The notes below the pieces were generated by a model that was given only the letters and a program-made list of their open reading frames with translations, searched no databases and was not told the origin of the DNA. From an uncultured Dehalococcoidaceae bacterium (GTDB lineage: Bacteria; Chloroflexota; Dehalococcoidia; Dehalococcoidales; RBG-16-60-22): a DNA stretch of 64,000 nucleotides. Both the position numbers and the translations under genes were made by a program. The stretch covers positions 5,384 through 69,383 of the forward strand of contig CAYFHI010000001.1 in assembly GCA_964342875.1 (NCBI GenBank), read 5' to 3'. Every line of letters starts with the position of its first letter. Position 1 is the first letter of the stretch. Below are positions 2,726 to 33,182 of the stretch, piece after piece.

Positions 2726-3901
2726 TCACAGTAAAGATGGAATGTCTTTGGAGGTATCTTCCATTGCTTTTAGTCTGACTTCGGTGGCTTCCTGCCTCTT
2801 TTTGGTTTCGGGAATAAGGTCAGTCGATTTGGTATAATAGCCCCTGATTTTTTCCACATCACTGAGCTCGGAAAGAATCACGGTAACGTCTAGCTGCCCT
2901 TTGTCCCTGGGATAGTCACCATTTCTGATAAGAGCTTCCGGTGCCATGTCCCTCATGTAGTCACCCAGTTCCTTAATCATATCCATATTCATCTCTTTAG
3001 CAGGTCCGGAAACAAGATACATGGCTCTCCTCGAATCTACCGGATTGCATTTGAGGGATAATTCGCTGATAGCCTCGTCCATTGCCTGGATGCCCTTTTG
3101 AATCTCAGCGCCCTTCTTTCTGAAGTCATTCCCCCAATCTTGGGGGAATCGGAGTAATGGAACGTCTGCCTTGCCAAAACCGATTACCGTCCAGCCTACC
3201 AGCGTCTGGATGATGTCACCCGCGTCAAGGAGCTTCGACCCGATGTATTTGGGTCTTTTTTCTTCACCGGCGCAGAGCAGGTTGTAAAACGGTTCTGCTA
3301 TCAAAGAATTGATTTTAGAGAGGTTATGTTTGATTGATGAATCCTTTCTGACATATCTTTGATTATCAATAACAAATATGGCATCAGCTACCGAGTAACA
3401 GGATTTAAGGCAGGTAGCCACGTTATAGGCGGTTCTTTCCTCGGTGGTTACCTCATGCTCAAAAGGAAGGACGATAACGTTATAAACTGGTTTATCTAGA
3501 TATCGTTCTTTTATCTGCTGTGTAATAACGGGTATTGAGCCGGAGCCGGTACCACCGGCTGAACCGGCAATGAGAAGGAAGGCATCCGTTTCATAAAAGT
3601 TCTTGGTGGTTCTGATAGCATCAATGACTTTATCGGCATCTTCTTTGGCTACCTCAGCGCCAAGTTCATTTATTTTCCCCACGCCGTGGCCACCGGTTTT
3701 TCTACCACCAATGAGAATTCGGTGCTGGTATCCCTTCGGGATGCCGGTGAGACCGCTCAAATCAGCCGCATCCGTATTTATTGCAAAAGTACCGGTGACT
3801 ATCTGAATTCCGCGTCGGCTTTTCGCCCTTCTATTTAGCTGGGAAAATTCATCGGCAATCTTACCACCACATTGCCCTAACCCTATAACCACTATTTTCA
3901 T
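2726..3901 (-). CDS. Tubulin/FtsZ-superfamily GTPase, CetZ/tubulin-like, paralog 1
   Basis: 391 aa. T1 loop GLGQCGGK, T4 signature GSAGGTGSGS, T7-like LLDAGD, and GGHGVGKINELGAE, VIDNQRY and NGDYPRD motifs. C-terminal tail KDIPSLL. The layout matches my recollection of archaeal CetZ better than FtsZ. Confidence 0.8.
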   Translation of the reverse strand: MKIVVIGLGQCGGKIADEFSQLNRRAKSRRGIQIVTGTFAINTDAADLSGLTGIPKGYQHRILIGGRKTGGHGVGKINELGAEVAKEDADKVIDAIRTTKNFYETDAFLLIAGSAGGTGSGSIPVITQQIKERYLDKPVYNVIVLPFEHEVTTEERTAYNVATCLKSCYSVADAIFVIDNQRYVRKDSSIKHNLSKINSLIAEPFYNLLCAGEEKRPKYIGSKLLDAGDIIQTLVGWTVIGFGKADVPLLRFPQDWGNDFRKKGAEIQKGIQAMDEAISELSLKCNPVDSRRAMYLVSGPAKEMNMDMIKELGDYMRDMAPEALIRNGDYPRDKGQLDVTVILSELSDVEKIRGYYTKSTDLIPETKKRQEATEVRLKAMEDTSKDIPSLL

Positions 3902-3932
3902 AACTCACCTCAACATTAATCGAGTTTTGTTA

Positions 3933-3961
3933 TTTTATACATACCATTGTGAAAATGTCAA
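3933..3961 (-). promoter_or_regulatory. Predicted sigma70-type promoter of tubulin-like paralog 1
   Basis: On the minus strand: TTGACA, 17 nt, TATAAA, about 30 nt upstream of the ATG. AGGTGAG RBS before the start. Confidence 0.45.
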
Positions 3962-4030
3962 TTCCTTTTGGTAAAAAAAGAAATAAAATACTACTATACA
4001 TATTTTTTCAGACAAGTTTATTAATAAATG

Positions 4031-4059
4031 TTGAAAAACTGAACAGTCTATACTAGAAT
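4031..4059 (+). promoter_or_regulatory. Predicted sigma70-type promoter of the 650-aa repeat protein gene (divergent from paralog 1)
   Basis: TTGAAA, 17 nt, TAGAAT, inside an AT-rich 196-bp divergent intergenic region. Confidence 0.45.
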
Positions 4060-4097
4060 GATATGATAGATAAGGATATTAGGGGAAGGGTGATGGT

Positions 4098-6050
4098 ATG
4101 GTACCTAAAGTATTAGAGGATATCAACATAGGTATTGGGTCGGTTGAGAAAGCTGTAGCTAAGGCCGAGCAGCTGAGTAGGGAGGCGAAAGAGGCGGTAG
4201 AGGCTTCTACGAAGGTTTCTCAGCAGGCGGTAAGTCGGGCGGAGCAGATAAGTACAGAGGCGGGAGTGTCGGCGGCAGAATCGGCAAAAGCCGCTCGAGA
4301 AGCGGTAAAGCGTGCTGAGAAACTGAGAAAAGATGCAAAAGAAGCTGTTGAAGCGTCAATAAAAATCTTTGAAGATGCCATACGCCGGGCAGAAGAAGCC
4401 GCCAGAGCGCCGAGAGATTCAGCTGAGGCGACTAAGAAAATCTTTGAGGAAGCGATTAGCCGGGCGGAGAAAATCAGCAAGGAAGCGATGGGAACGGCTG
4501 AGGCGACATTAGTATTGTCTCAGGAAGTATTAACCAGAGTTGATGAAGTAAGTCGGGGAGCCAAAGAAAAATCAGAATACGCCAGAAAAGTAGCTCAGGA
4601 AGCGGTTGATCAGGTTAATGAAGTAAGTCGGATAGCCCGGGAAGCTGCTGAAGTATCGATTAAATCTTCCAGAGAAGTAGCGAGTAAGGCTGAAAAATTA
4701 ACCAAGTTTGCCAGGGAAGACTCTGAAGCGGCTACCAGAGTGGCTAAAGATGCAGCAAATCGGGTGGAAAAGGCGAGTAAAATCACCAAGGATGATGCGG
4801 AAGCATCAGCCAGGGCAGCTGAAGAAGCGACGATACGGGCTGAAGTAACGAGTAAAGTTTCCAAGGAAATTGCTGAAGCAGCGCAGAGAAAATCTGAGGA
4901 GGCGATGAGCCAGACTGAGGAGATAAGTAGGAGAGCCGAAGAGGCGTCAGAGTCATCACAGAAGATGTCACGGGAAGCGCTCAGCAGGATAGAGGAGATA
5001 AGTCGTGAGTCAAGGGAATCAGCTGAAGAATCACAGAAAATATCGCGCGAGGCAATAGAAAGAGCGGATCGGATTAACAGGGAGACGGTAGAAGCAGCAG
5101 AACAGTCTGCAGAACTCTTCCGTGAGGCGATTGATCGGACCGAACAAGTAAGTATTGAAGCAAAGCAAGCGGCGGTAGAATCGGTAGAGGTCTCTCAGGA
5201 AACCATAAGGCGGGCGGAAGAAATAAACAGGGAGGCTAAAGTAACCACCGAAGCGTCAGCAAAAGCGGCTCGTGATGCCGCTGAGACTTCCGTAAAGGCA
5301 TCCCAGGAAGCGATAAGCCGTGCCGAAGAATTAAGTCGGGAGACAAAGGAAAACGCGGAAGTATTCGCAAAAGCAGTAGAAGAAGCGACGGAGACATCAG
5401 CTCGGGCTGCCCGGGAAGCGGCGGAAACATCAAAGAAAGGCTTTGAGGAAGCTATAAGGCGGGCGGAAGAAGTAAACAAAGAAGCTAAAGAAATGGCGAA
5501 AGCAGCAGAAAAAGCGGCTGAAAAAGTATCTGCAGGTTTGATGACAGCTGCGAAAGAATCGGCGAAGGTTACAGTGAAAACCGCCAGAGAAGCTGTCGAA
5601 ACGTCCACAAGGATTGCCAGGGAAGCGGCAGCGCTATCAATACACGCTGTTGAAGAATTAATTAGCCGTGCTGAGACATCCGGTAAAAATGCCAAAGAAA
5701 CGGTAGAAGCGTCCTTAAAAGCCTTTGAAAAAGCGATTATTGAGAATGAGGCGGAGGGTAGAAAATCGGTTGTCACTGATGGTGTCGGTGAGGAATCAGA
5801 AGAAGCTATTGAAAAAGCAATGCCGGGTGATGAAGAAAAAGATGGCGAGGTTGACGCTGATGAGGCTGCGTTAAGGGTATTAGAAGACGCAATAAAACGG
5901 GCTGAAGATACCAAGTCTAAGAAGAAAAAAGGAACCAGAGGAAAGATTGAGACACGACTGGAATCGTTAGCCAAAATGTATGAATCTCAGAAGGGTAAAG
6001 ATGCTAAAGGAAAGTCAGGTGCGGAAGATAATTTGGGGATTGACGCGTAG
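4098..6050 (+). CDS. 650-aa Ala/Glu/Lys/Ser-rich coiled-coil repeat protein, function unknown
   Basis: Long ORF with a GGGGAAGGGTG RBS region. No TM segment or signal peptide seen. Recurring A[VI]xRAE anchor; Lys-rich, charged C-terminus. The antisense ORFs within it are low-complexity mirror artefacts. Confidence 0.85.
   Translation: MVPKVLEDINIGIGSVEKAVAKAEQLSREAKEAVEASTKVSQQAVSRAEQISTEAGVSAAESAKAAREAVKRAEKLRKDAKEAVEASIKIFEDAIRRAEEAARAPRDSAEATKKIFEEAISRAEKISKEAMGTAEATLVLSQEVLTRVDEVSRGAKEKSEYARKVAQEAVDQVNEVSRIAREAAEVSIKSSREVASKAEKLTKFAREDSEAATRVAKDAANRVEKASKITKDDAEASARAAEEATIRAEVTSKVSKEIAEAAQRKSEEAMSQTEEISRRAEEASESSQKMSREALSRIEEISRESRESAEESQKISREAIERADRINRETVEAAEQSAELFREAIDRTEQVSIEAKQAAVESVEVSQETIRRAEEINREAKVTTEASAKAARDAAETSVKASQEAISRAEELSRETKENAEVFAKAVEEATETSARAAREAAETSKKGFEEAIRRAEEVNKEAKEMAKAAEKAAEKVSAGLMTAAKESAKVTVKTAREAVETSTRIAREAAALSIHAVEELISRAETSGKNAKETVEASLKAFEKAIIENEAEGRKSVVTDGVGEESEEAIEKAMPGDEEKDGEVDADEAALRVLEDAIKRAEDTKSKKKKGTRGKIETRLESLAKMYESQKGKDAKGKSGAEDNLGIDA
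4152..5810 (+). repeat. Coding periodic repeat with a 25-residue (75-nt) unit and later 11-residue insertions
   Basis: Anchor hexapeptides start at residues 19, 44, 69, 94, 119, 144, 169, 194, 219, 244, 269, 294, 319, 344 and 369 (15 units at exactly 25 aa). Later anchors are at 405 (+36), 452 (+47), 521 (+69) and 546 (+25). Confidence 0.85.
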
Positions 6051-6328
6051 GATTTTACCGGTAGGATTATTCATATGTTCTATATATGTTACGATAACAA
6101 AAACCCTAATAGAGGAGTTGTTTGGGTAATCGTAATATGTATGGGAAAAGTTATTTGACTTTTCCGGGTAATTAATATAAACTATGCTTCTAAGTAGCTC
6201 TTCATTTTGGGTAGGATATTAGGGTTAATAGGTACGTGTTTCTGTATGCGTATGACGAAAGTACTGGTGCTGGGTATGTAAAAAAGGTGGATAGAACTGA
6301 CAATATGATGGTATAAAGGAGGTACTTT

Positions 6329-6910
6329 GTGGCTAATTCAAAGCGGAAGTTCAAAAAAGTCTCTGATAAAGCGGAAGAGCAGGTAGCTCCATCACTCGAA
6401 GTTCAGGAAGAAGTTCAGGAAGAAGTTCAGGAAGAAGCTCAAGGATATGGTTTAGAAGGTATCTCAGAACGGGTTGAGGAGACTGTTGTGGAAGAATCGG
6501 AAAAAGTAGGTAACCCGCTTGATGAAATGATGGGTCATGCCGAAAGGGCATACGCGGCATATATGGAGGCGGAACGGCAGGTAGCTAGGGCTTACAGGGA
6601 GAATGAGTTGCAGGTAGCCAAGTCTCATAAGAGAGCTAACAATCAAATTCAGAAAGAATATGATGAGACGACCACACAGGCCTTGAAGACGCGCGAAGAA
6701 GCTTTAACTCGGGCAACGGACGCTCGTGAAAAAGCCTGGCAGGAGGCGGAAGCGATTTTTAGCCAGGCTAAAGAGCAGGCTGATAATGAACTTGGGGCGG
6801 TAATGGCAGAAGCGGTAAGGGTAAAGCAGGAGAACTTGGAGAAAGCTTGGAAAGTACGTGACGATACTATTGACCAGGCTTGGCATATTTATTCAAAAAT
6901 GACAAAATAA
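6329..6910 (+). CDS. 193-aa acidic coiled-coil protein, function unknown
   Basis: GTG start 7 nt after AAGGAGG. N-terminal (EEVQ)3 acidic repeat. The C-terminal two thirds is predicted helical with repeated KAW/QAW motifs. Confidence 0.7.
   Translation: MANSKRKFKKVSDKAEEQVAPSLEVQEEVQEEVQEEAQGYGLEGISERVEETVVEESEKVGNPLDEMMGHAERAYAAYMEAERQVARAYRENELQVAKSHKRANNQIQKEYDETTTQALKTREEALTRATDAREKAWQEAEAIFSQAKEQADNELGAVMAEAVRVKQENLEKAWKVRDDTIDQAWHIYSKMTK
6398..6443 (+). repeat. 12-bp tandem repeat (gttcaggaagaa x3 plus a degenerate fourth copy) encoding EEVQEEVQEEVQEEAQ
   Basis: Three perfect contiguous copies at 6401-6436, read directly from the sequence. Confidence 0.85.
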
Positions 6911-6912
6911 GT

Positions 6913-6946
6913 AAAGATGGTACTATGAGCTAGCGCCATCTTTTTC
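6913..6946 (+). terminator. Possible rho-independent terminator after the 193-aa gene
   Basis: Stem AAAGATGG / CCATCTTT with a 15-nt loop, running into TTTTT. The loop is long, so confidence is moderate. Confidence 0.45.
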
Positions 6947-7007
6947 TGTAATAATTGATAATCTGATAAATCCAGAAGTCCGGCTTTTGTCGAAGGTTAA
7001 AGTTCGG

Positions 7008-8183
7008 TTATAACAGAGAGGGGATATCCTTTATCGTGAGGTCAATCCCTCGTTGCTGGTCTACCAAACCATTCTGGCGTTTCTTAAGTGCAGATATTAA
7101 CGAGATTGCTTTAGTGAAGTATCCCCTGATTTTTTCGAGATCACTAAACTCGGATAATACCACGGTAACATCCAGCATACCCCTATCTCTGGGGTAATCA
7201 CCGCTCCTGATAATAGCCTCCGGAGCCATACCCTTTAAATAAGTTCCGAGCGCTTTTATCAGGTCCATACTAATTTCCCTGGCAGGTGCCGATACGAGAT
7301 ACATGGCTCTTTTGGCATCTATGGGGTTACACTTGACTGATAATCCGCTGATAGCTTCATCCATTGCTTGGGTTCCCTTCTGGGTTTCCGTAGCCTTATC
7401 CCTGAAGTCTCGCGCTCCATCGAAGAGCGATTTGAGGAGTGACGTATGAGACTTGCCATAACCTAAAGTTGTCCAGCCGGAGAGCGACTGTATTATATCG
7501 CCGGCATCCAGCATCTTCGCCCCAATGTATTTCGGTTTTTTCTCTTCTCCGGCACAGAGAAGGCTAAAAAACGGCTCCACTATCATCGCGTTGATCTTGG
7601 TCATATTGCTGCTGATCGATGCGTCTTTAGAGAGATATCTTTGGTTATCAACCAGAAATATCGCATCTGCTACTAGATAGCTGGATTTAAGGCATGTGGC
7701 TACGTTATATATGGTTCTATCTTCAGTGGATTCTTCGTGCTCAAATGGAAGGATGATAAGGTTATATACCGGTTTATCTACAAACCGTTCCTTAATTTGC
7801 TGCGTCATAATTGGGATAGAACCGGAGCCAGTACCGCCAGATGCGCCAGCAACGAGCAAGAAGGCATCCGCTTCAGAGAAACGTTTGGTAGTTCTTACCG
7901 TATCAATTATTTTATCGGCATCCTCCTTGGCTATTTCAGCACCCAGCTCATTTATTTTCCCCACGCCGTGGCCACCGGTCTTCCGTCCGCCAATGAGAAT
8001 ACGGTGCTGGTAATCAGACTTTATCGTCGACAGTCCGCTTAAATCAGCTACATCGGTATTAGCAGCATAAGCGCCAACGATGATATCCAGACCACGAGCG
8101 CCGCGTGCTTTCCGGTTCAGCCTTGCAAACTCATCCGTAACCCTACCGCCACATTGTCCAAAACCTAAAACTACTAATTTCAT
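7008..8183 (-). CDS. Tubulin/FtsZ-superfamily GTPase, CetZ/tubulin-like, paralog 2
   Basis: 391 aa, gap-free colinear with paralog 1 (71 of the first 100 residues identical by eye). GFGQCGGR, GASGGTGSGS, MLDAGD, LVDNQRY and SGDYPRD motifs. Identical tail KDIPSLL. Confidence 0.8.
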   Translation of the reverse strand: MKLVVLGFGQCGGRVTDEFARLNRKARGARGLDIIVGAYAANTDVADLSGLSTIKSDYQHRILIGGRKTGGHGVGKINELGAEIAKEDADKIIDTVRTTKRFSEADAFLLVAGASGGTGSGSIPIMTQQIKERFVDKPVYNLIILPFEHEESTEDRTIYNVATCLKSSYLVADAIFLVDNQRYLSKDASISSNMTKINAMIVEPFFSLLCAGEEKKPKYIGAKMLDAGDIIQSLSGWTTLGYGKSHTSLLKSLFDGARDFRDKATETQKGTQAMDEAISGLSVKCNPIDAKRAMYLVSAPAREISMDLIKALGTYLKGMAPEAIIRSGDYPRDRGMLDVTVVLSEFSDLEKIRGYFTKAISLISALKKRQNGLVDQQRGIDLTIKDIPSLL

Positions 8184-8211
8184 AAATAATTACCTAACGT
8201 GCGATTGAACT

Positions 8212-8241
8212 ATTGTAATCATCTTGACGTACAAAAGTCAA
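8212..8241 (-). promoter_or_regulatory. Predicted sigma70-type promoter of tubulin-like paralog 2
   Basis: On the minus strand: TTGACT, 18 nt, TACAAT, about 30 nt upstream of the ATG. Confidence 0.4.
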
Positions 8242-8592
8242 TCTATCCCCTGTTTTTAAGAGGATTCAGGCGTAAGTTCTCTCAAATGGTTGAGTTGTTA
8301 AACGTGATTTATTACATGTTTTCTTAAAAAATACAGGATAGATAAAAACAGGTTAGTAATATTACGTTGGTTCCTTTTTTCAATATCATGTACTATCTCT
8401 TATTATAGCCCACTATCCATAATGGAATTAATCCAGTCAATCAGGTTATTTTTCTCTGCTACTCCTAGTTTTTAATTGTGGCCCCATTTTGTCATTCTGA
8501 GGAAAACCTCCCGAACCGGCTAAAAATATTGATTCTAGTTTTAGTTTTTATTAAGGTTATCTGATATATGCTTATCTTTCATAGTCAGACCG

Positions 8593-9618
8593 TTATCGTC
8601 TGAGTGCCCGTCGGCCGTACTTAAAGCCTTGTTTGCGCCGTTGCAGCATGTCCAGAAATGCCTCAATGCGTGTTTTTTTATGGGTGGTCAGAGAATAATC
8701 GTCATTACCTTCTAATATAAGAAAGGGTAAGTTAATGGCGTTACGAAATATAATGTCGCCGATTCCCCGGTGACAGAATGCCTGTACATAATGAATGACC
8801 CCATCGACCCGTCTTTTGTCGAGCTCCGCGGTGATGTCTTTTAGTCTTTCATGTATTGAGTATGGATAAGTATAGCTGGAATATTGATCTGCTAGAGAGT
8901 TTCCCGCTTCAGGCATCGCAAACTGTCGCTGAATCTCGTTGAATACTATTCTGGCTCCATTGGTCTCAAGATAGGGGAAAAAGTCTCTGGCGTAAACCGG
9001 AGGTACGCCGATATATGCCATCCTGAGATAATCTGCGGGATATGATTGACGCCGCTGGCATTCGGTTAATAGCGTCTTTAATTGAGAGTAATATTCGTGG
9101 TGGTCCCCGTTGAAATCAGACGAGGAAACCAGCCAGTAGTGGTTCTCGCCGCCGCTGACCAGACTATCTTTCCAGGTCAACTCGTCTAGTTCCCGTGCTA
9201 GGTTGCGGCAGGGTTGAAGTTCATCTCTGACTCGGCTTGCCGCTTCTATGCTTGTACCCAGCGTTGCGGCTAATTCCTCTAAGGTCCGCTGCATGATCTC
9301 TGTATTGGGAAATTCAGGATAGGCGAAAGGTATAGCCTTGAGGTTCTTCAGTCTGAGGACTTCCATCAGTATCTTTGTGTTAGAGCAGTCACCAGTAGTA
9401 ACACAGAGGACGGTATCGATTCCATATTCCATACATACCCCATAGATTCCCTTAATCCAGCTGCAGCAGTTAATGGGGAAACCGGCTTTTTCTGCAATGT
9501 GCACCAACCTTTCCGGGTTAGAGTCGTTTATGAAAATATTGTTCAGGTCAACCGGCTGATAGCCGGCGGCAATGAGAACTTCTATGGGAACTGTAGTGGT
9601 GATGCCGATTTTCTTCAT
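8593..9618 (-). CDS. 2-hydroxyacyl-CoA dehydratase (HgdB/D-component) family protein
   Basis: 341 aa. The N-terminal ITTTVPIEVLIAAGYQPV and C-terminal HYVQAFCHRG patterns are typical of the family. No partner subunit or activator is adjacent. Confidence 0.55.
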   Translation of the reverse strand: MKKIGITTTVPIEVLIAAGYQPVDLNNIFINDSNPERLVHIAEKAGFPINCCSWIKGIYGVCMEYGIDTVLCVTTGDCSNTKILMEVLRLKNLKAIPFAYPEFPNTEIMQRTLEELAATLGTSIEAASRVRDELQPCRNLARELDELTWKDSLVSGGENHYWLVSSSDFNGDHHEYYSQLKTLLTECQRRQSYPADYLRMAYIGVPPVYARDFFPYLETNGARIVFNEIQRQFAMPEAGNSLADQYSSYTYPYSIHERLKDITAELDKRRVDGVIHYVQAFCHRGIGDIIFRNAINLPFLILEGNDDYSLTTHKKTRIEAFLDMLQRRKQGFKYGRRALRR

Positions 9619-11504: not shown

Positions 11505-12110
11505 TTATTGAGTCGGCTCATCGGCAAAAAACTGGTTGTATTTATTCATCGCAGCGGTTAAATCCTCGGAGAGGAAGCAGAGGATAGCCTGGCTGACGGT
11601 AGGGATAACTCGAGCTATAATTCTTCTTTCCTCGGATGTGAAATCAGTTAAGACATAATCAAGCACGACGGATTCTTTATTGGGTAAAGAACTAATAGCA
11701 TCCGGTCGTCCGATACCTACTCTGATTCGGGAGAATTCCCGGCTTTCTAACTGATCGATAACAGAGTTTATACCTTTATGGCCGCCGGAGCCGCCGCCGT
11801 GCCGGATGCGGATTTTACCCAGTGGGGTATCAAGATCGTCATGTATAACCATGAGGTCGTTGAGTTGGACATTAAACTTTTTTACGAGTCGGTTGATCGA
11901 CTGACCACTCAAGTTCATATAGGTCTGGGGTCGGGCAATCACTACCTTATCACTGGCGACTCCACCCGTGCCAGTGCGCGCCAGCCCCTGTTTTTTAAGA
12001 AACCGTATGCCTTGTGTCTTGGCAAAATGGTTTAGGCACATAAAACCGACATTATGGCGGTTATGGGTGTAGCTGGTTCCTGGATTTCCTAGTCCCACTA
12101 TCAGTTTCAT
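11505..12110 (-). CDS. pth: Peptidyl-tRNA hydrolase
   Basis: 201 aa. GLGNPG...Y..NRHNVGF N-terminal signature. Confidence 0.93.
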   Translation of the reverse strand: MKLIVGLGNPGTSYTHNRHNVGFMCLNHFAKTQGIRFLKKQGLARTGTGGVASDKVVIARPQTYMNLSGQSINRLVKKFNVQLNDLMVIHDDLDTPLGKIRIRHGGGSGGHKGINSVIDQLESREFSRIRVGIGRPDAISSLPNKESVVLDYVLTDFTSEERRIIARVIPTVSQAILCFLSEDLTAAMNKYNQFFADEPTQ

Positions 12111-14158
12111 GATTTTGATTCCTTAAGCTTTTCCACAAAAGCTGTTTCATCGAGTATTTCTGTGCCTAGCTTACGGGCTTGGTCAAGCTTTGAACCGGGG
12201 TTGGTGCCGATGACAACGTAATTTGTTTTACGGGTAACATTACTCCCCGTAGAGCCGCCGAGGTTTTTTATCCGGTCTTGAGCTTGTTGCCGGGTAAAAT
12301 CCTCCAGAGTGCCGGTAATGACAAACTGCATCCCCGTCAAGGGTAGGTCGGCAGGTTCAGTTGCCGTTTCCTTCAGCCGGACTCCGGCTTCTATTAGTCT
12401 TTTGACAATATTTTGGTTTTCTTCCTGATTAAAGAAGGTAATGATGCTGTCGGAAATCTTGGGACCGATAGCCGGCATCAACATCAGATGTTCTTTTGAG
12501 GCGCTAGCCAGTTCATCAATGCTTTGGAACTCTTTTGCCAGGATATTCGCCGTCTCATCACCGACGTGGCGTATGCCTAGAGCAAAGATAACCTTCGGGA
12601 AAGGTCTTTCTTTGCTCTTTTCAACGGCTTTGAATATATTACTGATGCTCTTTTCCGCAATTTTTTCTAGGCTGAGAAGCCGTGCTTCCTTACTTCTCAA
12701 GTTATAGATGTCGGCAACATTCTTGACCAACTCTTCTTTCAGTAGGATGGCACTGAGTGCTTTGCCTATTCCTCGTATATCCATTGCTCCTCGTGAGACA
12801 AAGTGCTGCAATCGTTCCTGTACCTGGTCGGGGCAGGCGGTATTGGTGCAGTAATACATAACCTCGCCCTCGGGCTTGATGATGCTGTTTTTCCCACAAG
12901 AAGGGCAGACAGGTTCTCCCTGTTCGTTCTTCAACTTTTCCAGGAGGCTGAACTCCTTTTCCTGTCCGATACGCTTGCTGCTAACCGGACCAACGATTTC
13001 GGGGATTACTTCGCCCGCTCTCTGGACTATTACCGTATCTCCAACGCGGATATCCTTGCGCCTGATATCGTCTTCATTATGTAGGGCAGCCTGCTTTATG
13101 GTTACTCCTCCCATTGATATAGGTTCCAGGATAGCGTAGGGATTAAGTGTACCTGTTCTGCCGACGCTGATGCTAATGTTAAGGAGTCGGGTGGTGCCCT
13201 GGACAGCGGGAAATTTATAGGCGATTGCCCAGCGCGGCTCACGGCCGATATTTCCCAGTCGCTCTTGAAGGTCAAGCTGGTCTATTTTTATCACGACACC
13301 GTCTGTTTCGTAGGGCAGGCTATCTCGTTTTTCCTCACAGGTTTCGTAATACTCTTCAACCTGCTTGATACTGATTAGCTGGCGGTTATTGGGGTTTGTT
13401 TTGAACCCAAGTGATTTAAGGTATTCCAGCGTTTCCCAGTGAGTTGGCGGGACTGCCCTGCCTTCGGCATATCCGAGCATGTAAATATAAATATCTAGCG
13501 GGCGTTTCGCGGTAATGCGAGAGTCCAACAGCCGTACCGAGCCGGCGGCAGCATTGCGCGGGTTGGCAAACTGGGGCAGACCCTCGGCAGCCCGCTCTTG
13601 GTTGAGTTTGTGAAAGCCGGTTTTTGACAGGAAGACTTCTCCCCTGACTTCAAAGCGGGGTGGCGCATCTCTATTTATGGAGGTGGGTATGCTTCTGATG
13701 GTTCTCAAGTTCTGAGTGATATTCTCGCCGTGGAGTCCATCACCGCGGGTGGCGCCAGTGGTTAGCTGCCCGTTAACGTAGGTGAGGGCGACGGCGAAAC
13801 CGTCAATCTTGTACTCACCGATAAAGTTGAATTGTGACTCGTTCGTCAGTTTTAAAGTACGGGCGTACCAGGCGGAGAGTTCGTCTCTGGAAAAAACGTT
13901 GCCTAGCGAGAGCAAAGGTAAAGGGTGCTCCACGATGCCGAAGGCTTCTACCGGAGTCGCTCCGACGCGCTGGGTAGGTGAGTCAGATGTCAGTAACCGC
14001 GGGTACTGCTCTTCAAGCTGCTTCAGTTCCCTCATTAACCCGTCATATCCGCTGTCGCTAATTTCCGGGTTATCCAGAATATAGTATCGGTGGTTGTGGT
14101 GATTAATCTGGTTCTTTAGTTGCTGGATTCTGTTCCTGATTTTGTCCATCTCTGCCAT
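12107..14158 (-). CDS. ligA: NAD-dependent DNA ligase
   Basis: Adenylation motif EYKIDGFA, Zn finger CPSCG...C.N..CP, HhH region and a BRCT-like C-terminus. I moved the start to Met26 of the track ORF (MAEMDKIRNRI...), where homology begins. Confidence 0.94.
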   Translation of the reverse strand: MAEMDKIRNRIQQLKNQINHHNHRYYILDNPEISDSGYDGLMRELKQLEEQYPRLLTSDSPTQRVGATPVEAFGIVEHPLPLLSLGNVFSRDELSAWYARTLKLTNESQFNFIGEYKIDGFAVALTYVNGQLTTGATRGDGLHGENITQNLRTIRSIPTSINRDAPPRFEVRGEVFLSKTGFHKLNQERAAEGLPQFANPRNAAAGSVRLLDSRITAKRPLDIYIYMLGYAEGRAVPPTHWETLEYLKSLGFKTNPNNRQLISIKQVEEYYETCEEKRDSLPYETDGVVIKIDQLDLQERLGNIGREPRWAIAYKFPAVQGTTRLLNISISVGRTGTLNPYAILEPISMGGVTIKQAALHNEDDIRRKDIRVGDTVIVQRAGEVIPEIVGPVSSKRIGQEKEFSLLEKLKNEQGEPVCPSCGKNSIIKPEGEVMYYCTNTACPDQVQERLQHFVSRGAMDIRGIGKALSAILLKEELVKNVADIYNLRSKEARLLSLEKIAEKSISNIFKAVEKSKERPFPKVIFALGIRHVGDETANILAKEFQSIDELASASKEHLMLMPAIGPKISDSIITFFNQEENQNIVKRLIEAGVRLKETATEPADLPLTGMQFVITGTLEDFTRQQAQDRIKNLGGSTGSNVTRKTNYVVIGTNPGSKLDQARKLGTEILDETAFVEKLKESKS

Positions 14159-14242
14159 TCGGTACGCTCGCTGACAAAATTCATATTTTAGTATAACACA
14201 GTGCTTCATCGGGTAGAAGGTAATGAATATCATGAGAAATTA

Positions 14243-14529: not shown

Positions 14530-15099
14530 TCAGAGAGTCGTTGCCGATTTTATCCGTAGAGGTATGCCTGCTGCCATAAGATAGACCTCATCCACGGTCT
14601 CTGTCAGCATTTGGTTAGTCTTGCCGAGAAGATCTCGATATAACCGGCTGGTATAATCTGTCGGCACTAGGCCGAGTCCAACCTCGTTGGTGACTAAAAT
14701 AAAGCTGGCATTAACCGACTTAAGACACCCGTTAAGTCCACCAATCTCTGCTAGGACCTTTTTTTCGGCTTGCTGGGCATCAATCTGTTCATCAGTATCT
14801 CTGACGTGTTCAAACATAATATTGTTAACCAGAAGGGTGATGCAATCGATAATCACCGTCTGTGATTCACCGATGTTGTTGGTGATAAGCTTACCTAAAT
14901 ACTTGGTGATTTCAAGGGTGGTCCAATCGACTGGTCTTGCTTTCCGGTGCTCCTCGATTCGCTGGCGCATCTCTTCGTCGCTGGCGGTGGCGGTCGCTAC
15001 AAAAAGGATGGGCTTACCTGATTTCAGGGCAAGCTCCATGGCAAAATTACTTTTACCGCTGCGGGCGCCGCCGAGTATTAGAGTGTTAATCTGGCTCAA
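14530..15099 (-). CDS. cobU: Adenosylcobinamide kinase / adenosylcobinamide-phosphate guanylyltransferase
   Basis: 189 aa. P-loop GGARSGKS. Length and layout are typical of CobU/CobP. Confidence 0.85.
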   Translation of the reverse strand: MSQINTLILGGARSGKSNFAMELALKSGKPILFVATATASDEEMRQRIEEHRKARPVDWTTLEITKYLGKLITNNIGESQTVIIDCITLLVNNIMFEHVRDTDEQIDAQQAEKKVLAEIGGLNGCLKSVNASFILVTNEVGLGLVPTDYTSRLYRDLLGKTNQMLTETVDEVYLMAAGIPLRIKSATTL

Positions 15100-23574: not shown

Positions 23575-24102
23575 TTACTCCCTTCCTGTAGTTCCTGCCA
23601 GTATCCTCTTTCGAATTGTTATGAAAAGAGGCTGCTCAATGGCGGTATGTTCCAGCAGTAATTGTCGTGTATGGCTTATATGGGCCCTCATATCATGAGC
23701 GCTGGCTTCCCATCTATGACGTGCCAGCCTGTCGCTAATAAGTTCGGTCACTTGCTTCTTCACATGGGTAAGGCGATCTCTAAAAACTCCATGCTGGAGA
23801 AGCAGAGCTTTCAAGTCGGAAACCAGTTTTTTATCACCGTATCTTTCAAAGACATGTAAAAGGACCGTTTCTTCACGGTTGAAGTGTGCCAGAAGACCTT
23901 GGTTGATTGTATCCAGCGACTCCAGAAACTTTTGTAATCCTTTACCCAAGTCCAATCTGCCAGGCATAAATGCGTCCTTGGCTGCATCTATCCCAGAAAT
24001 CGCAGCAGCGTCACCAAACATCCCATCAAGTTCTTTAAACCTTTTAAAGGCGATCTGGTGTTCTTGAATAATCTGGTCAATCAAGTCCAGGGCTTCCTTC
24101 AT
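23575..24102 (-). CDS. Hemerythrin-like (HHE cation-binding) domain protein
   Basis: 175 aa, helical, with spaced H/E residues (IQEH, HFNREE, LLQH). Weak by-eye call. Confidence 0.45.
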   Translation of the reverse strand: MKEALDLIDQIIQEHQIAFKRFKELDGMFGDAAAISGIDAAKDAFMPGRLDLGKGLQKFLESLDTINQGLLAHFNREETVLLHVFERYGDKKLVSDLKALLLQHGVFRDRLTHVKKQVTELISDRLARHRWEASAHDMRAHISHTRQLLLEHTAIEQPLFITIRKRILAGTTGRE

Positions 24103-24631
24103 TGGTTCCCTCCTACCAAATCAACTGTAAAGCTGCCGGGTTTTGATTGATTGTATCTGAGCAAGAAGATTTTGCATATTCCAGTATGATAACTAGAGAT
24201 AATAAGCCGATTATGGATATAACTGCTGGCTTGAATCATCTTCAATAATAATTGCATTCGCAGTATAGCTTTCCGCCGCTTCCAAAAGAGTCTTCTCATT
24301 GACTGATGACGGGTCTAATATAATCGCTTTGTTCTCATTATCAAAAGCAAAGATCGTCAACGCAATCACCAGCAATTACCCAGGCTAATGCAGAAATCTC
24401 TTTCTACCCGTACTTTCATTATCTTTCGCTGCAACTCTTTTTCTCCTTTGATGTTGCTAGGTTCATTTTAACATACACCACCAACTTTTGCTTTCTACCT
24501 GTCCCCAACTTCATGTCTAACACATATTTTTCTAAGACCTATCATTCTTATCTAAGTATATGCTGCTATCTACGTTAAGGCATATGACATAAGTCATATT
24601 TGATTACTTAGATAAATGGCATTAAAAACTT

Positions 24632-24686
24632 TTGATAAAGTGTATACTGTATGCTACTATGGGGTATATTAGATAACTTTATACCC
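24632..24686 (+). promoter_or_regulatory. Predicted csoR promoter with candidate CsoR operator
   Basis: TTGATA, 17 nt, TACTAT (24632-24660), followed directly by the inverted repeat GGGTATA-N11-TATACCC (24662-24686). This lies inside the 5-prime extension of the track ORF, which supports the downstream start. Confidence 0.4.
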
Positions 24687-24713
24687 TATCGTTTACACAA
24701 GGAGGATTGCAGT

Positions 24714-25007
24714 ATGCCAGCGCCAGGAAGACAATATCAATATACTAAAGATAAAGCGGCTCTACAGACGAGAATGAAAAAAATCGAGGGCCAGGCAAAG
24801 GGTATCCAGCGAATGATTGAAGAAGATCGTTACTGCATTGATATTGTCCAGCAGTTATCTTCTCTTTCCTCAGCGGCTGAAGAGGTGTCTTTACATATTC
24901 TTCAGGCACATATTGAAGGATGCGTAACCAGCGCAATATGTGAACAGAGCGGAGAGAGTTATATTACAGAATTGATGGAAACGATTCGCAAAGCGGTGCG
25001 GCGGTAA
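24714..25007 (+). CDS. csoR: CsoR/RcnR-family metal-sensing transcriptional repressor
   Basis: 97 aa from the ATG at 24714 (AAGGAGG RBS). DUF156 pattern RMKKIEGQAKGIQRMIEEDRYCIDIVQQ with C-H-C ligand positions. Confidence 0.85.
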   Translation: MPAPGRQYQYTKDKAALQTRMKKIEGQAKGIQRMIEEDRYCIDIVQQLSSLSSAAEEVSLHILQAHIEGCVTSAICEQSGESYITELMETIRKAVRR

Positions 25008-25259
25008 CTCCATGAATAATTATAACTTATACTAAATACTTATTGTTGTTAGAATAAATCTAAAGGACGTATTATTTTGAATAAGGGAAGGAATTGTTCC
25101 TGACGACTTTAAACTTGGAGGTGAAGTGGTGGCGAAGGGTAAATACGATACGGCTGTATTCTAGGTAGGGGGGGCGGCGCCAGTTGTTCTTTTTGCAGTA
25201 TCAGTCACTAGGCGGATAAAAGAAATATACCGCTTAAAAATTGGTTGGAGAAAGCTAAT

Positions 25260-27950
25260 ATGAGATCGAATACCATCAAGAAAACAAAGAACGTAATTTT
25301 ACCCATTACAGGGCTGACCTGTGCATCCTGTGTGTCTTACGTGGAAAAGACGCTGAGAGAACTTGACGGCGTCGTCTCGGTCAACGTTAATCTGGCTACG
25401 GAAAAAGCCATTGTGGAATATGATGGTGATAACGCCGATATCAAGATGCTGATTGATGCCATTACCGGTAGCGGTTACGGGGTGACGCCGCAAAAGACAA
25501 CATTTAAAGTAACCGGTATGACCTGTGCTTCCTGCGTGTCCCAGGTGGAGAAAGCTCTGCGGGGACTTAGCGGTGTCGTCTCGGTAAACGTGAATCTGGC
25601 TTCAGAGAAGGCTACCGTTGAATATGATGCTGGTAAAGTCGGTATGGAAGATTTTCGGAAAGTGGTAGAGGGGGCCGGATATGGCGTCGGGGAGGAGATT
25701 GACGCTGAGAGTATCGTCGAGTCTGATGTCGTCTTGGCATCGGCAAATAAAGAGATTCTAACCCTGCGTAGCAAGTTGCTTTTTTCCGGCGTTATGGGCG
25801 CCTATATGATGATTATCGCCATTGCTGAATTGTACGGTGGATCATGGCTGCCGTCTTTTTTCAGTAATCACTATATACTCTGGGTGCTAGCGACGCCGGT
25901 TCAATTCTGGGCAGGCTGGCAATTCTATCGCGGTACGTGGGGGGCATTAAAGCATAAAACATCAAATATGAATACCTTGATTGCCGTGGGGACTTCGGCG
26001 GCTTATTTCTATAGCGTCGTCGCTATCCTAGCTCCCGGGTTCTTCGCCGCCGGTGGTCGGGAAGCAAATGTTTACTTCGACACTGCGGTTATCATTGTCG
26101 CCCTCATTCTGCTGGGGCGCTTCTTGGAAGCACGGGCAAAGGGTAGGACATCAGAGGCAATCAAGAAGTTGGTGGGTATGCAGGCAAAGACAGCTAGGGT
26201 AATGCGCCAGAGTACTGAAACCGATATACCGGTTGAGGAAATAGTCGTTGGGGATATCATCATCGTGCGGCCGGGAGAAAAAATACCGGTGGATGGTGTT
26301 CTCAGAGAAGGACTCTCCGGCGTCGATGAGTCGATGGTTACCGGCGAAAGCATTCCGGTAGAAAAAGGGGTTGGCGACGAGCTTATCGGCGCTACAATTA
26401 ATAAGACCGGTAGTTTTCGTTTTGAAGCTACCAAGGTGGGTACAGACACGGTACTTGCCCAGATTATCAAGTTGGTGGGAGAGGCGCAGGGCAGTAAGGC
26501 ACCCATTCAAAGGCTGGCGGATATCATAGCTGCCTACTTTGTGCCGGCTGTTATCGGTGTGGCTGCAATCACCTTTCTCTCGTGGTATTTATTTGGACCG
26601 GAGCCGGTATTGACCTTTGCTTTGTTAAATTTCGTCGCTGTCATTATCATTGCCTGTCCTTGTGCTCTTGGACTGGCGACCCCTACCGCTATTATGGTAG
26701 GTACCGGCAAGGGAGCCGAAAACGGCGTTCTTATCCGTAGCGGCGAGGCACTGGAGACAGCCCATAAAATAAATGCCATTATCCTCGATAAAACTGGCAC
26801 GTTGACGCAGGGGAAACCGGCGGTAACGGACATTGTAACCGCAGCTAGTTTTAAGGAGGATGAGTTGCTGACGATGATCGCTTCCGCGGAGTGCCGCTCC
26901 GAGCATCCTCTCGGTGAGTCAATAGTCACTGCGGCTAAAGAGAAGGGCCTTAACCTTGTTGATGCCACTGAGTTTAACGCCGTTCCCGGGCATGGCATCG
27001 AAGCCGGAATTGACGGACGCAAGATACTATTAGGTAACATAAAACTGATGAAAGAGCGAAAAATACCACTGGATGGTCTGGAGGAAAGGGCTGTCCAATT
27101 TTCTAACGATGGGAAAACGCCGATGTATATCGCAGTTGATGGCAAGGCGGCAGGACTGGTCGCTGTGGCGGATACCATTAAAGCGGACTCAAAGGGGGCG
27201 GTGGCGGAACTGCAGCGACTCGGTATCGAGGTGGTAATGCTCACCGGTGATAATAAGCGTACCGCCGAAGCTGTAGGTAAACAGGTGGGAATTGATCGTA
27301 TTCTTGCCGAGGTGATGCCGGAGTATAAAGCGCAGGAGGTAAAGAAGCTTCAGGAGGAAGGTGGAGTGGTGGCGATGGTGGGCGACGGCATTAATGATGC
27401 GCCGGCGTTGGCTCAGGCTGACGTGGGGCTTGCCATTGGAACGGGTACTGATGTGGCGATGGAAGCCGCCGATATTATCTTGATGAGCGGTGACCTGTGG
27501 GGGGTGGTTACTGCCATTTCACTAAGTAAGCGGACATTAAGAACCATCAAGCAGAACCTTTTCTTGGCTTTTGCCTACAACGTGTCCTTGATACCAGTGG
27601 CGGCTGGTGTGCTGTACTTTGTTTTCGGGCAGAGTGGAACGCCGCCGGGCTTGCAGTTTTTCCTGGGTGATTTCGGATTTCTGAACCCGATGTTAGCCGC
27701 CGTCGCGATGGCTTCCGGTTCGGTGACAGTAGTCTCTAATTCCCTGCGTTTGAAAAATTTTAAACTTGCCACTCTGGCAAATAAATTAAAAGAGGTTTGT
27801 ATCATGGCTATTGACCCGGTCTGCAAGATGGACGTTGAAGAAAGCACCGCCGCGGTTACCTCTAAATACAAGGGTAAGACCTACTATTTCTGTGCCTTGG
27901 GCTGCAAAAAAGCTTTCGATGGTGACCCAGAGAAATACCTGCTTGAGTAA
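25260..27950 (+). CDS. copA: Copper-translocating P1B-type ATPase with two HMA domains and a C-terminal YHS/TRASH-like domain
   Basis: GLTCASCV and GMTCASCV motifs, TGES, CPC, DKTGT and GDGINDAP. C-terminal extension DPVCKMDV...[15 protein letters not shown] at 25260 preferred over the TTG at 25245 on RBS spacing. Confidence 0.92.
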
Positions 27951-28736: not shown

Positions 28737-29651
28737 TCATTTTCCCAGTCGCTGTAAATAGCGGTGGGCTTGGAGCGCCGCCTTGGCGCCCTCCCCGGCG
28801 GCAATAATAATCTGCTTCTCAGGTACGTCGGTGACATCTCCGGCAGCATAAAGACCGAGAGCCGTGGTCTCACAAAGACAGCTGACGGGTACCTCTTTCT
28901 GTCTGGTTAATTCAAGGAGTCCGGCTACCGCACTCGAATTGGGTACTAACCCTATCTCGATAAAAACGCCGGTAACATCCAGATTTTTCTTCTCGCCGTT
29001 CTTTACGCTTTTTATGACGATTCCTTTCACCAGGCCATCACCCTCTATTTTCTCGGTATCATATTCAATATAAGTGCTCAGGTTTTTCACACCCGATAGC
29101 TGCTTAGTTAGAACGGGGTCGGCAGTTATCGGGGTCAGCGAAACTAGGTCGACATGCTCGGTAATTTTTATCATGTCCAGAGCCGCCTCGACCGCCGAGT
29201 TGCCGCCGCCTATCACCGCCACTCTCTGCCCGGAGAAAACAGGCCCGTCACAGATGGCGCAATAAGTTACACCCATCCCGGTTAACTCGGCTTCGCCGGG
29301 CACATTTAACTTTCTGGGTTTCTTTCCGGTAGCGAAAACCACTGCTTGTGCCTGGTACTTTTCACCGGAATCAGTGGTGGCTTCGAATCCCCCTTTTATC
29401 GCTGTCAGTTTGGAAACCTTGGGACCAATCTTCTGGTCTACGGGAAACTGGCTCACCTGCGCCTGAAATTTACTTATCAGATCCGGACCTTCGATAAATT
29501 GATAACCAAGATAATTCTCAACGCCCATAGTACTGTTTATCTGGCCACCGATATCACCACTGATGAGAAGGGCCTTTAGCTGTTTGCGTGCAGCATAGAC
29601 AGTGGCGCAAAGTCCCGCGGGACCGCCGCCGATTATTATCAATTCATACAT
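28737..29651 (-). CDS. trxB: Thioredoxin-disulfide reductase
   Basis: GGGPAG FAD motif, redox-active CAICDG and GGGNSAVEAA NADPH motif. Start at MYELIIIGGG (ATG at 29651) with a GGAGG RBS. Confidence 0.9.
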   Translation of the reverse strand: MYELIIIGGGPAGLCATVYAARKQLKALLISGDIGGQINSTMGVENYLGYQFIEGPDLISKFQAQVSQFPVDQKIGPKVSKLTAIKGGFEATTDSGEKYQAQAVVFATGKKPRKLNVPGEAELTGMGVTYCAICDGPVFSGQRVAVIGGGNSAVEAALDMIKITEHVDLVSLTPITADPVLTKQLSGVKNLSTYIEYDTEKIEGDGLVKGIVIKSVKNGEKKNLDVTGVFIEIGLVPNSSAVAGLLELTRQKEVPVSCLCETTALGLYAAGDVTDVPEKQIIIAAGEGAKAALQAHRYLQRLGK

Positions 29652-29701
29652 CTCCCGACCTCCAAACACGGAATTACAACAGGAATTAATTAGCGATAAT
29701 C

Positions 29702-30985: not shown

Positions 30986-31102
30986 GTAAACAATATAGTG
31001 TACCTCTCTCACGATCAGATGGTAACTACTTTCCTTGTTAATAACTGTGACACCGGAGAGTTTCGAACAGGCAAGGGAGTGGATTTAAAAGGAGATATTT
31101 GA

Positions 31103-32287: not shown

Positions 32288-32289
32288 TA

Positions 32290-33134: not shown

Positions 33135-33182
33135 AAGGTACAAATGTTCTTTTTGTAAATCGGAAGAGGAGGTATTTTTAAC

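Follow-up and report, generated by a model that had tools for sequence, protein, structure and literature searches.

A conserved Dehalococcoidales locus brackets two predicted helical proteins with two CetZ-like GTPases: a candidate bacterial cytoskeletal module

Introduction

What would a bacterium without peptidoglycan do with two tubulin-superfamily GTPases of the type that reviews still describe as archaea-specific? The question is raised by a stretch of 64,000 nucleotides from an uncultured Dehalococcoidaceae bacterium (assembly GCA_964342875.1, contig CAYFHI010000001.1; hereafter the window). Here two open reading frames (ORFs) of 391 residues each, paralog A (2726..3901, - strand) and paralog B (7008..8183, - strand), bracket two ORFs of the opposite strand that encode a repeat protein of 650 residues, CC650 (4098..6050, + strand), and a smaller protein of 193 residues, CC193 (6329..6910, + strand). 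An earlier note on this DNA had proposed that the four genes form an undescribed filament system, in which two polymerising GTPases resembling the archaeal CetZ proteins would act together with coiled-coil scaffolds or regulators.

The host itself gives the question its interest. The Dehalococcoidales have lost their dcw and peptidoglycan genes, have kept mraZ-mraW-ftsA-ftsZ together, and possess an archaeal-like S-layer (PMC10608941). We argue below that A and B are almost certainly CetZ-like proteins, and we lean towards reading the locus as a lineage-specific Dehalococcoidales cytoskeletal module built on these two paralogous CetZ-type GTPases.

Two CetZ-like GTPases

Profile searches, sequence comparison with known structures and structure prediction all place the two proteins with CetZ, as the earlier note had suspected from their motifs, rather than with FtsZ, tubulin or TubZ. 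In Pfam, the Tubulin GTPase domain (PF00091) scores 117 bits in A and 103 bits in B against a cut-off of 33, and the CetZ_C domain (PF21011), at 59.3 and 59.8 bits, is well over its cut-off of 21.6, with profile positions 2-178 of 180 covered; CetZ_C is likewise present in 52 of the 53 diverse family members scanned. The FtsZ equivalog of NCBIfam (TIGR00065), by contrast, reaches only 71.4 (A) and 54.8 bits (B) vs a cut-off of 295.2, the TubZ-type Tubulin_2 (PF13809) stays at 14.8 and 12.7 bits, under its cut-off of 27, and neither FtsZ_C nor Tubulin_C appears among the Pfam matches of either paralog at E ≤ 1. When PDB chains were searched with paralog A using phmmer, Haloferax volcanii CetZ1 came first (4B46, 3.7e-44, aligned over residues 1-366), followed by CetZ2 (4B45, 9e-30) and then Methanosaeta CetZ (3ZID, 2.6e-14); 4B46 and 4B45 are the CetZ1 and CetZ2 structures of Haloferax (PMC9856176). 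The best FtsZ (6e-12) lies about 30 orders of magnitude behind the top CetZ, and chains of gamma-tubulin, Asgard tubulin and Odin tubulin match at 1e-5 to 1e-7 over the GTPase domain alone.

The predicted fold tells the same story. The AlphaFold2 model of paralog A, built from a 53-sequence alignment, has a mean predicted local distance difference test score (pLDDT) of 91.5 and contains a long helix at residues 350-384; compared with the PDB by Foldseek, it ranks CetZ1 (4B46 at the top), CetZ2 and Methanosaeta CetZ first to third, with target-normalised template modelling scores of 0.92 for CetZ1 and CetZ2 vs about 0.82 for FtsZ structures. The database labels of homologues vary ("cell division GTPase FtsZ", "tubulin/FtsZ family protein" or, in IMG, "tubulin-like protein CetZ"), and we regard the label "cell division protein FtsZ" on these genes as a widespread misannotation, corrected here.

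The two proteins are as closely matched to each other as the earlier note had estimated by eye: 264 of 391 residues are identical in BLASTP (68%, with 84% positives and 0 gaps), including exactly 71 of the first 100, and the whole motif series sits at the same residue numbers in both. It runs from the T1 loop G(L/F)GQCGG(K/R) (residues 7-14) through GGHGVGKINELGAE (70-83), the T4 signature GGTGSGS (116-122), DNQRY (179-183) and the T7 loop LDAGD (225-229, with D226 and D229; 3215..3229 on the - strand in A, 7497-7511 in B) to GDYPRD (328-333). D229 aligns with E. coli FtsZ D212 and with CetZ1 E218, the mutation of which hyperstabilises polymers and blocks rod formation and function (bioRxiv 10.1101/2024.04.08.588506). 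Because D229 falls on this catalytic position, and with the nucleotide pocket, T1, T4 and the T7 Asp intact, both paralogs look catalytically complete. Among 25 members of the bacterial clade described below, 23 have Asp at the catalytic T7 position; as a marker dividing that clade from CetZ, the Asp/Glu difference was rejected, Asp being found in 27 of 49 archaeal representatives as well. Hydrophobic residues are present in the region matching the LLSRL tip of the CetZ1 M-loop, where the alignment is unreliable, and we do not use them as evidence.

A bacterial branch of the family

How large is the family to which A and B belong, and is it bacterial at all? An initial homologue search returned 6400 matches at E ≤ 0.001. 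HMMER, run exhaustively over 1.84 billion cluster representatives (clusters at 50% identity), retrieved 75 clusters at E ≤ 1e-30, a number that rises to 292 at E ≤ 1e-10. An archaeal host, such as might be expected of a CetZ, is not what these relatives point to: named close relatives are exclusively from Dehalococcoidales, Dehalococcoidia or Chloroflexota, the 21 related loci in GTDB-species genomes all come from Dehalococcoidales, Dehalococcoidaceae or Dehalococcoidia metagenome-assembled genomes (MAGs), and the genes near A and B are bacterial (dnaX, recR, ybaB, trigger factor). One deep member of the clade also stands in a bacterial context, next to FtsH and MacB-type genes.

We built a neighbour-joining tree with 100 bootstraps from 71 full-length representatives, A, B, CetZ1, CetZ2 and E. 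coli FtsZ, the last being the only FtsZ in the tree and checked against PDB chains. One clade unites A and B with the named Dehalococcoidia proteins P0160 and P0173 and with deeper members (88/100), and a second set groups CetZ1 and CetZ2 with a CetZ from Thermococcus (P0300) and a protein from Bathyarchaeia (P0248), which are monophyletic against the first in 15/100 replicates; with such support, the tree is compatible with a bacterial clade that is sister to archaeal CetZ as well as with one nested inside it. Brown & Duggin 2023 are said to place the Thermococcales CetZs as the deepest members of the canonical CetZ clade.

The split agrees with Santana-Molina et al. 2023, who matched proteins of Chloroflexota-Dehalococcoidia with their own CetZ_C model and described the group as 'CetZ-like' and paraphyletic (PMC9871819); CetZ-like proteins in Dehalococcoidia are thus already on record. 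The word "undescribed" in the earlier note therefore has to be divided: it fails for the family, given that publication and the IMG label "tubulin-like protein CetZ", and it holds for the cassette with its two coiled-coil proteins, of which we found no description. Nor did our literature search find any description of the two orthologous groups, the common tail, the 25-residue-repeat rod, the single-helix protein or the conservation of the four-gene block, all treated below. CetZ-like proteins in bacteria were known before; the cassette with its coiled-coil partners, and the function proposed for it below, are what we add.

Two of the more distant members deserve a closer look. The deep bacterial-clade member P0180 (L105/L106, 7001-12312; 38% identity) is encoded directly upstream of two tandem FtsH genes and ends in a tail LPSLL plus an acidic end. 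Another (L020, 10001-11176; 56% identity, tail ELPNL) is preceded by genes for two large acidic proteins of 1152 and 556 aa (3390-9599) with N-terminal signal-like segments and C-terminal membrane anchors, which may be envelope or S-layer-type proteins.

Two orthologous groups with a common tail

Two paralogs in one genome could be a recent accident. A tree of 104 tubulin genes from related loci indicates otherwise, for it separates an A-position clade of 38, the dnaX-proximal group, from a B-position clade of 58, the group adjacent to CC193; as A and B fall into separate clades, the duplication must be old within the lineage, and both copies have been maintained. The two groups share a strongly conserved core, in which 162 of 391 positions reach at least 95% conservation in each group, and only seven positions tell A and B cleanly apart: six fall within the C-terminal domain or terminal helix, and the nucleotide pocket contains none. 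A sequence signature of an alpha/beta-like heterodimer was rejected on the same count, none of the seven positions being at the nucleotide interface. Over the linker helix (residues ~350-384) each group has a consensus of its own, and this helix before the tail may confer paralog-specific contacts.

The tail itself is common property. KDIPSLL, at 2729..2749 (- strand) in A and 7011-7031 (- strand) in B, is near-invariant in the 96 orthologues of both groups, 38 of them A-position, and more distant Dehalococcoidia homologues end in DIPTLL, ELPLLL or ELPNL. What could such a short extension be for? The C-terminal peptide of FtsZ binds FtsA, ZipA and other partners, and the C-terminus of E. coli and Klebsiella FtsZ in PDB chains is DYLDIPAFLRKQAD. 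CetZ1 ends in LESLF, and replacement of this tail by AESGG abolishes rod formation (bioRxiv 10.1101/2024.04.08.588506). Because the CetZ1 and FtsZ tails are comparable, we take KDIPSLL, in A and B alike, to be most plausibly a conserved peptide for docking or self-association.

Two B copies depart from the usual length. In one MAG the B paralog is without residues ~27-146 (L006, 4168-5080), and the copy on a JGI contig is called at 318 aa (L108, 6058-7014), whereas a near-identical NCBI contig carries the full 391 aa (L109, 5839-7014); these shortened copies represent either assembly errors or occasional pseudogenisation.

Two predicted rods between the paralogs

The ORFs between the paralogs, which the earlier note took for a repeat coiled-coil protein and an acidic coiled-coil protein, are real, and both have a strongly helical character. 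CC650 is rich in Ala, Glu and Lys (21% Ala, ~40% charged residues), and over residues 16-545 (4143..5732, + strand), where Gly and Pro together account for 1.3%, it is an array of 25-residue repeats: autocorrelation peaks at lags of 25, 50, 75 and so on, at least 15 repeat units stand in register, and the hydrophobic periodicity is 3.58 residues (power 526 vs a median of 4), close to 25/7. Our interpretation of the 25-residue unit is three heptads plus a four-residue stutter. From this composition and periodicity a very long, near-straight amphipathic helix or coiled coil is expected, and the rod would measure up to ~75 nm if the repeat array formed one continuous helix. Full-length CC650 orthologues at the same locus position span 658-847 aa, a range that would fit repeat regions of differing length, and have conserved N- and C-termini; one copy of 530 aa is truncated by its contig (L004). 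Near the C-terminus, after a Lys-rich stretch, lies the motif KIETRLESLAKMYE (5943..5984, + strand), which recurs as KIExRLExLAxMYE in 11/11 full-length orthologues examined. The repeat region also carries long antisense ORFs (4220-5974, - strand; for instance 5195-5974, 259 aa) that are Ser/Ala-rich and most likely by-products of the GA-rich repeat, and the GC skew across this stretch is +0.30.

CC193 is built more simply: a basic tip at the N-terminus is followed by an acidic, variable linker and then by a conserved helix of 130 residues (6515-6904). AlphaFold2, given a 3-sequence alignment, models residues 63-192 as one uninterrupted helix with pLDDT >90 and leaves the N-terminus disordered, which would make a helical rod ~19 nm long; the 27 invariant columns of the orthologue alignment (A2) are in the conserved C-terminal region. 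A word-indexed search produced only two CC193 homologues, and an alignment scan of metagenomes produced 286 related loci.

Neither protein has a convincing match in Pfam, NCBIfam, PHROG, PADLOC or the PDB. No Pfam or NCBIfam family lies above cut-off for CC650; EzrA, ZapA, ZapB and SepF are not among the Pfam and NCBIfam results of either protein at E ≤ 1; the PDB sequence search returned designed helical bundles only, and the phage search a spurious tape-measure match. A sequence search for CC650 homologues, with 0 of 8000 low-complexity candidates at E ≤ 1e-10, was uninformative. The orthologues in GCA_030153525.1, where the genes were called independently, measure 669 aa (CC650) and 176 aa (CC193) and have no Pfam match either.

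The helix of CC193 occurs in other settings too. A paralogue of 167 aa (L064, 3412-3915) lies in a 9.9-kb locus in which no tubulin gene was found, with a further coiled-coil ORF, Glu/Lys-rich and 383 aa long, 1.8 kb downstream (5677-6828). In P0357, a PAS-annotated Dehalococcoidales protein of 319 aa, the C-terminal half corresponds to the CC193 helix (40% identity over 151 residues) and bears the motifs AERAYAAYMDAERQVA and AWxIYSK; this fusion suggests that the helix is a reusable module.

A block conserved across Dehalococcoidales

Do the four genes stay together? The order eno-(HGD-D)-B-CC193-CC650-A-dnaX-ybaB-recR recurs exactly as in the window in 11 Dehalococcoidales loci of GTDB-species genomes, the same four genes were called in the independently annotated NCBI assembly GCA_030153525.1, and the four-gene order is found in about 40 independent MAG and metagenome loci, so that conservation of the block well beyond the window is established. 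For the metagenomes we retrieved 80 of the 286 CC193-related loci: downstream of CC193, 45 of the 47 with at least 1.5 kb of sequence on that side have a B-type gene in convergent orientation, CC650 stands beside CC193 in 28 of the 30 with at least 3 kb upstream, and an A-type gene is present in 25 of the 26 with at least 4.6 kb upstream. The flanks of the block are variable, with HGD-D present or absent and a GAPDH or metallo-beta-lactamase gene inserted in some loci; inside the core, surveys for homologues of window genes detected no fifth gene in any locus long enough. These loci have diverged considerably, with 57-64% identity in dnaX and 34-45% in CC650.

Partial versions of the block are also informative. 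One locus (L018) holds B, CC193 and CC650 together, with no A-type gene or dnaX detected nearby, and in five loci a single tubulin gene lies between HGD-D (or enolase) and dnaX with neither coiled-coil gene.

Sigma70-like promoter matches stand ahead of each GTPase gene and of CC650, as the earlier note had predicted. The A site (3961..3932, - strand; TTGACA, an 18-nt spacer and TAAAAT) matches the consensus at 11/12 positions, the CC650 site, divergent from A (4031..4059, + strand), at 10/12, and the B site (8241..8212, - strand) at 10/12. In an alignment of 38 orthologous intergenic regions both hexamers of the A site are conserved, as are TTGAAA and TAGAAT of the CC650 site, and the matches for A and CC650 are therefore more than chance. 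Between the convergent CC193 and B genes lies a terminator-like hairpin with a T-run (6913..6945, + strand), which in the RNA fold of 6900-7015 has a 9+3 bp stem followed by UUUUU (z = -2.6); a consensus terminator scan made no call there.

Alternative readings of the locus

If most databases were right, A and B would be a duplicated, diverged FtsZ serving as a division ring. Many source annotations do say 'cell division protein FtsZ', the tail DIPSLL resembles the FtsZ C-terminal peptide DIPAFL, and the Foldseek scores of FtsZ folds come close to those of CetZ folds. We nonetheless consider this very improbable, as TIGR00065 gives 71 and 55 bits vs a cut-off of 295, CetZ_C is found and FtsZ_C is not among the matches at E ≤ 1, CetZ structures precede every FtsZ by those ~30 orders of magnitude in E-value, E. 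coli FtsZ (the sole FtsZ in the bootstrapped tree) forms a long outgroup branch outside the CetZ-like sequences, and a canonical ftsZ is kept beside ftsA elsewhere in Dehalococcoidales genomes. Hardly credible, in turn, is a TubZ/PhuZ-like DNA-segregation or mobile-element module inserted in the chromosome: a fixed chromosomal site among housekeeping genes in dozens of MAGs, a GC content matching the surroundings, 0 PADLOC matches, no meaningful PHROG matches and no integrase, TubR-like gene or repeat centromere seen all contradict what little recommends it, namely a Tubulin_2 match below threshold (14.8 bits vs 27), a weak PHROG match of unknown function and an IS66 transposase beside one distant homologue.

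The remaining alternatives accept the GTPases as real CetZ-like proteins and differ over their companions. Perhaps CC650 and CC193 are functionally unrelated passengers, for example stress-protective, phasin- or LEA-like amphipathic helices, in an arrangement kept by descent. The entire ligA-pth-eno...dnaX-ybaB-recR block is indeed largely syntenic in the same loci, CC650 has a sub-threshold Phasin_2 match (E = 4e-4), one CC193 paralogue is remote from all tubulin genes, a segment resembling CC193 also occurs in fusion with a PAS domain, and distant CetZ-like homologues do without coiled-coil neighbours. A core that admits no other detected gene as its flanks gain and lose genes is harder to explain by descent, as are B, CC193 and CC650 staying linked without A in L018, the single-tubulin loci in which both coiled-coil genes are missing together, the considerable divergence of the loci in dnaX and CC650, and the conserved divergent promoter region common to A and CC650; we find the passenger explanation unlikely, if one to be taken seriously. 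Somewhat less probable again is that A and B form an obligate heteropolymer following the logic of alpha/beta-tubulin or BtubA/BtubB, with the coiled-coil proteins accessory like BtubC, which is a variant of the module proposed here and not a contradiction of it. Two distinct orthologous groups retained together across the lineage, genes linked in a single locus, and near-identical core surfaces (the 162 conserved positions) that would make the interfaces mutually compatible speak for such a pair. A full nucleotide pocket and a T7 catalytic Asp in both proteins, however, leave no asymmetry of the alpha/beta type, the seven discriminating positions, instead of marking the GTP interface, are found chiefly in the C-terminal domain and the terminal helix, the genes have separate promoters and opposite placements within the block, the locus of some relatives contains just one copy, and L018 carries B without an adjacent A.

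A candidate cytoskeletal module

We return to the reading that we favour, a cytoskeletal module built on two CetZ-type GTPases, against which several observations have to be set. CC650 and CC193 have no detectable homologues of known function; the CC193 paralogue of L064 has tatC as its neighbour, no tubulin gene being close by, and P0357 joins a CC193-like helix to a PAS domain; distant family members (38-56% identity) occur in unrelated contexts without coiled-coil neighbours; and the ligA-to-recR block is largely syntenic in this one lineage, so that descent could account for the conservation. The canonical ftsZ of the source genome, none being in the window, is taken from the literature on Dehalococcoidales, and the D. 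mccartyi proteins discussed below are probable orthologues by annotation rather than by sequence. Of the four-gene filament system envisaged by the earlier note, the conserved arrangement thus stands, and the claim of a single functional system goes beyond the results: polymerisation, localisation and interaction are inferred, and what ties the coiled-coil proteins to the GTPases is synteny in one lineage. Judged from that synteny, we would on the whole expect CC650 and CC193 to be functional partners of the GTPases; whether the module serves shape or division we regard as evenly poised.

How could such a module work? Each paralog would polymerise head to tail in a GTP-dependent manner, as H. 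volcanii CetZ1 does, and the filaments would turn over by GTP hydrolysis at the subunit interface, depending on D229. Because the interface regions are nearly identical, A and B can probably co-assemble or bundle. The filaments would lie under the membrane of peptidoglycan-free, S-layer-bounded cells and organise cell shape, the envelope or division, alongside a canonical FtsA-FtsZ system encoded elsewhere, with the CC650 and CC193 rods acting as filament-associated spacers, cross-linkers or tethers. The KDIPSLL tail would recruit a partner, which might be a coiled-coil protein, FtsA, SepF or, on the model put forward for CetZ1, an adjacent subunit. Taken to its boldest form, which we think rather unlikely as a whole, a wall-less, S-layer-bearing order would run an archaeal-style CetZ cytoskeleton, gained from or shared with archaea, in which A and B co-assemble into membrane filaments or sheets, the 25-residue-repeat rods measure and cross-link them, and the assembly sets disc shape or division in place of peptidoglycan.

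The one indirect hint of a role in cell shape or motility comes from proteomes of a cultured relative, Dehalococcoides mccartyi. D. mccartyi 195 encodes FtsZ (DET0343) beside FtsA (DET0342), and two more genes annotated "FtsZ", DET0589 and DET0636 (PMC5102406). In pure cultures of D. mccartyi BTF08, whose cells are discs, a "tubulin/GTPase" (btf_0551), an "FtsZ" (btf_0595) and a hypothetical protein (btf_0548) encoded near btf_0551 were abundant, and in co-cultures, with barrel-shaped cells, all three were less abundant or not quantified (PMC8163811). We infer that these extra FtsZ/tubulin proteins of D. mccartyi belong to the A/B family.

Should that boldest reading hold, CetZ would no longer be archaea-specific, and both the function of CetZ and the rod proteins associated with tubulins could be studied in a bacterial model. 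The mode of action of CetZ is only starting to be understood, in Haloferax; here is a large, strongly conserved bacterial branch in organisms without peptidoglycan yet with defined disc shapes, and hence an independent test of the role of CetZ-type filaments in a wall-less cell. The locus further offers two candidates for filament-associated proteins, among them a highly regular architecture of 25-residue repeats, and a data point on the interdomain transfer of cytoskeletal genes. The Dehalococcoidia are relevant to bioremediation and abundant in sediments and the subsurface, which makes their cell biology of practical interest. We see the locus as a good candidate for experimental follow-up and not as a categorical surprise.

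Genomic surroundings

The neighbourhood is the housekeeping one that the earlier note had described, with recR, ybaB, dnaX, enolase, pth and ligA around the four-gene block, and the GC content of the locus is similar to that of its surroundings. Rather than in a dcw or mraZ-rsmH-ftsA-ftsZ cluster, the paralogs lie next to dnaX, enolase and a gene of the HGD-D family (2-hydroxyglutaryl-CoA dehydratase D-component, double-cubane-like; 8593-9618, - strand), which adjoins B and is placed outside the conserved core because it is present in many orthologous loci and absent in others. When all 323 stop-to-stop ORFs of the window were searched by phmmer with both paralogs, only A and B themselves matched, so that no canonical ftsZ was found there. 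The mechanical ORF of ligA (12107-14233, - strand) begins 25 codons before the alignment start common to all orthologues, and its true start is probably the Met at residue 26.

Ordinary bacterial housekeeping genes and cobalamin salvage genes typical of Dehalococcoidia make up the remainder of the window. A tRNA scan of the window, made as an island-border check, found none, and the sole RNA match in an Rfam scan is a distant cobalamin riboswitch (RF00174, 54697-54842, + strand; 32.6 bits, barely over the gathering score). Downstream of it (54953-58510) come genes for CbiB/CobD, an aminotransferase and CobT (DBI_PRT), and cobU is at 14530-15099; together these look like a Dehalococcoidia-typical set for corrinoid salvage and remodelling. 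An oxidative-stress cluster at 28737-33401 comprises genes for a thioredoxin-reductase-like flavoprotein, rubrerythrin, a flavodiiron/ODP protein and a ferritin-like protein, and genes for a hemerythrin and a copper P-type ATPase are found at 23575-27950.

Comparison with known systems

Systems built on FtsZ with ZapA, ZapB or EzrA share with the locus the combination of a tubulin-superfamily GTPase and long helical proteins, and the FtsZ C-terminal peptide, which binds FtsA, ZipA or SepF, shares the pattern D-I-P-x-(F/L)-L at the extreme C-terminus. Unlike FtsZ, A and B fail the FtsZ family tests that we ran and lie outside any dcw/ftsA cluster, and CC650 and CC193 gave no EzrA, ZapA or ZapB match at E ≤ 1. 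The BtubA/BtubB locus of Prosthecobacter, with BtubC, is closer in layout, being a bacterial locus with two paralogous non-FtsZ tubulin-superfamily genes and an accessory gene, and both loci were probably acquired or retained outside the mainstream FtsZ system. However, BtubA and BtubB are true tubulins, whereas A and B match tubulins only at ~1e-6 and have no Tubulin_C match at E ≤ 1; both A and B look catalytically complete, and the accessory proteins are unrelated.

Within the Dehalococcoidia, the CetZ-like group of Santana-Molina et al. is evidently the same family as A and B, bacterial and matched by a CetZ C-terminal model. DET0589/DET0636 and btf_0551/btf_0595, the probable homologues in D. 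mccartyi, are likewise annotated as FtsZ or tubulin/GTPase, stand apart from the ftsA-linked FtsZ and are expressed; in D. mccartyi, however, the two genes are ~45 apart by locus-tag number, unlike A and B, which bracket two genes. The two orthologous groups, the coiled-coil neighbours, the tail and the cassette are not treated in those papers.

The nearest counterparts are the archaeal CetZs, above all Haloferax CetZ1 and CetZ2, although there are differences: the host of A and B is a Chloroflexota bacterium, the gene neighbourhood differs, and A and B fall in a separate clade (88% bootstrap) that excludes the Haloferax, Thermococcus and Bathyarchaeia representatives. In sequence the departures from typical archaeal CetZ are modest. 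The T1 loop reads GQCGG where archaeal CetZ has GQAGG. The T7 residue is Asp against the Glu of CetZ1, with Asp also common among archaeal representatives. What they share is the architecture of Tubulin GTPase domain and CetZ_C, the best match in both sequence and fold, the overall motif series and, at the C-terminus, a long helix that leads into a short hydrophobic tail (LESLF in CetZ1, DIPSLL in A and B); several paralogues per genome are common in both, and both kinds of host are S-layer-bearing cells without murein that can take a disc shape. Even the company they keep has a parallel, of gene context alone and across domains of life and tubulin subfamilies: archaeal genes for CetZ-like proteins, Halo.Tub and OdinTubulin, which at times occur as near-tandem copies, are often flanked by uncharacterised coiled-coil genes (PMC9871819).

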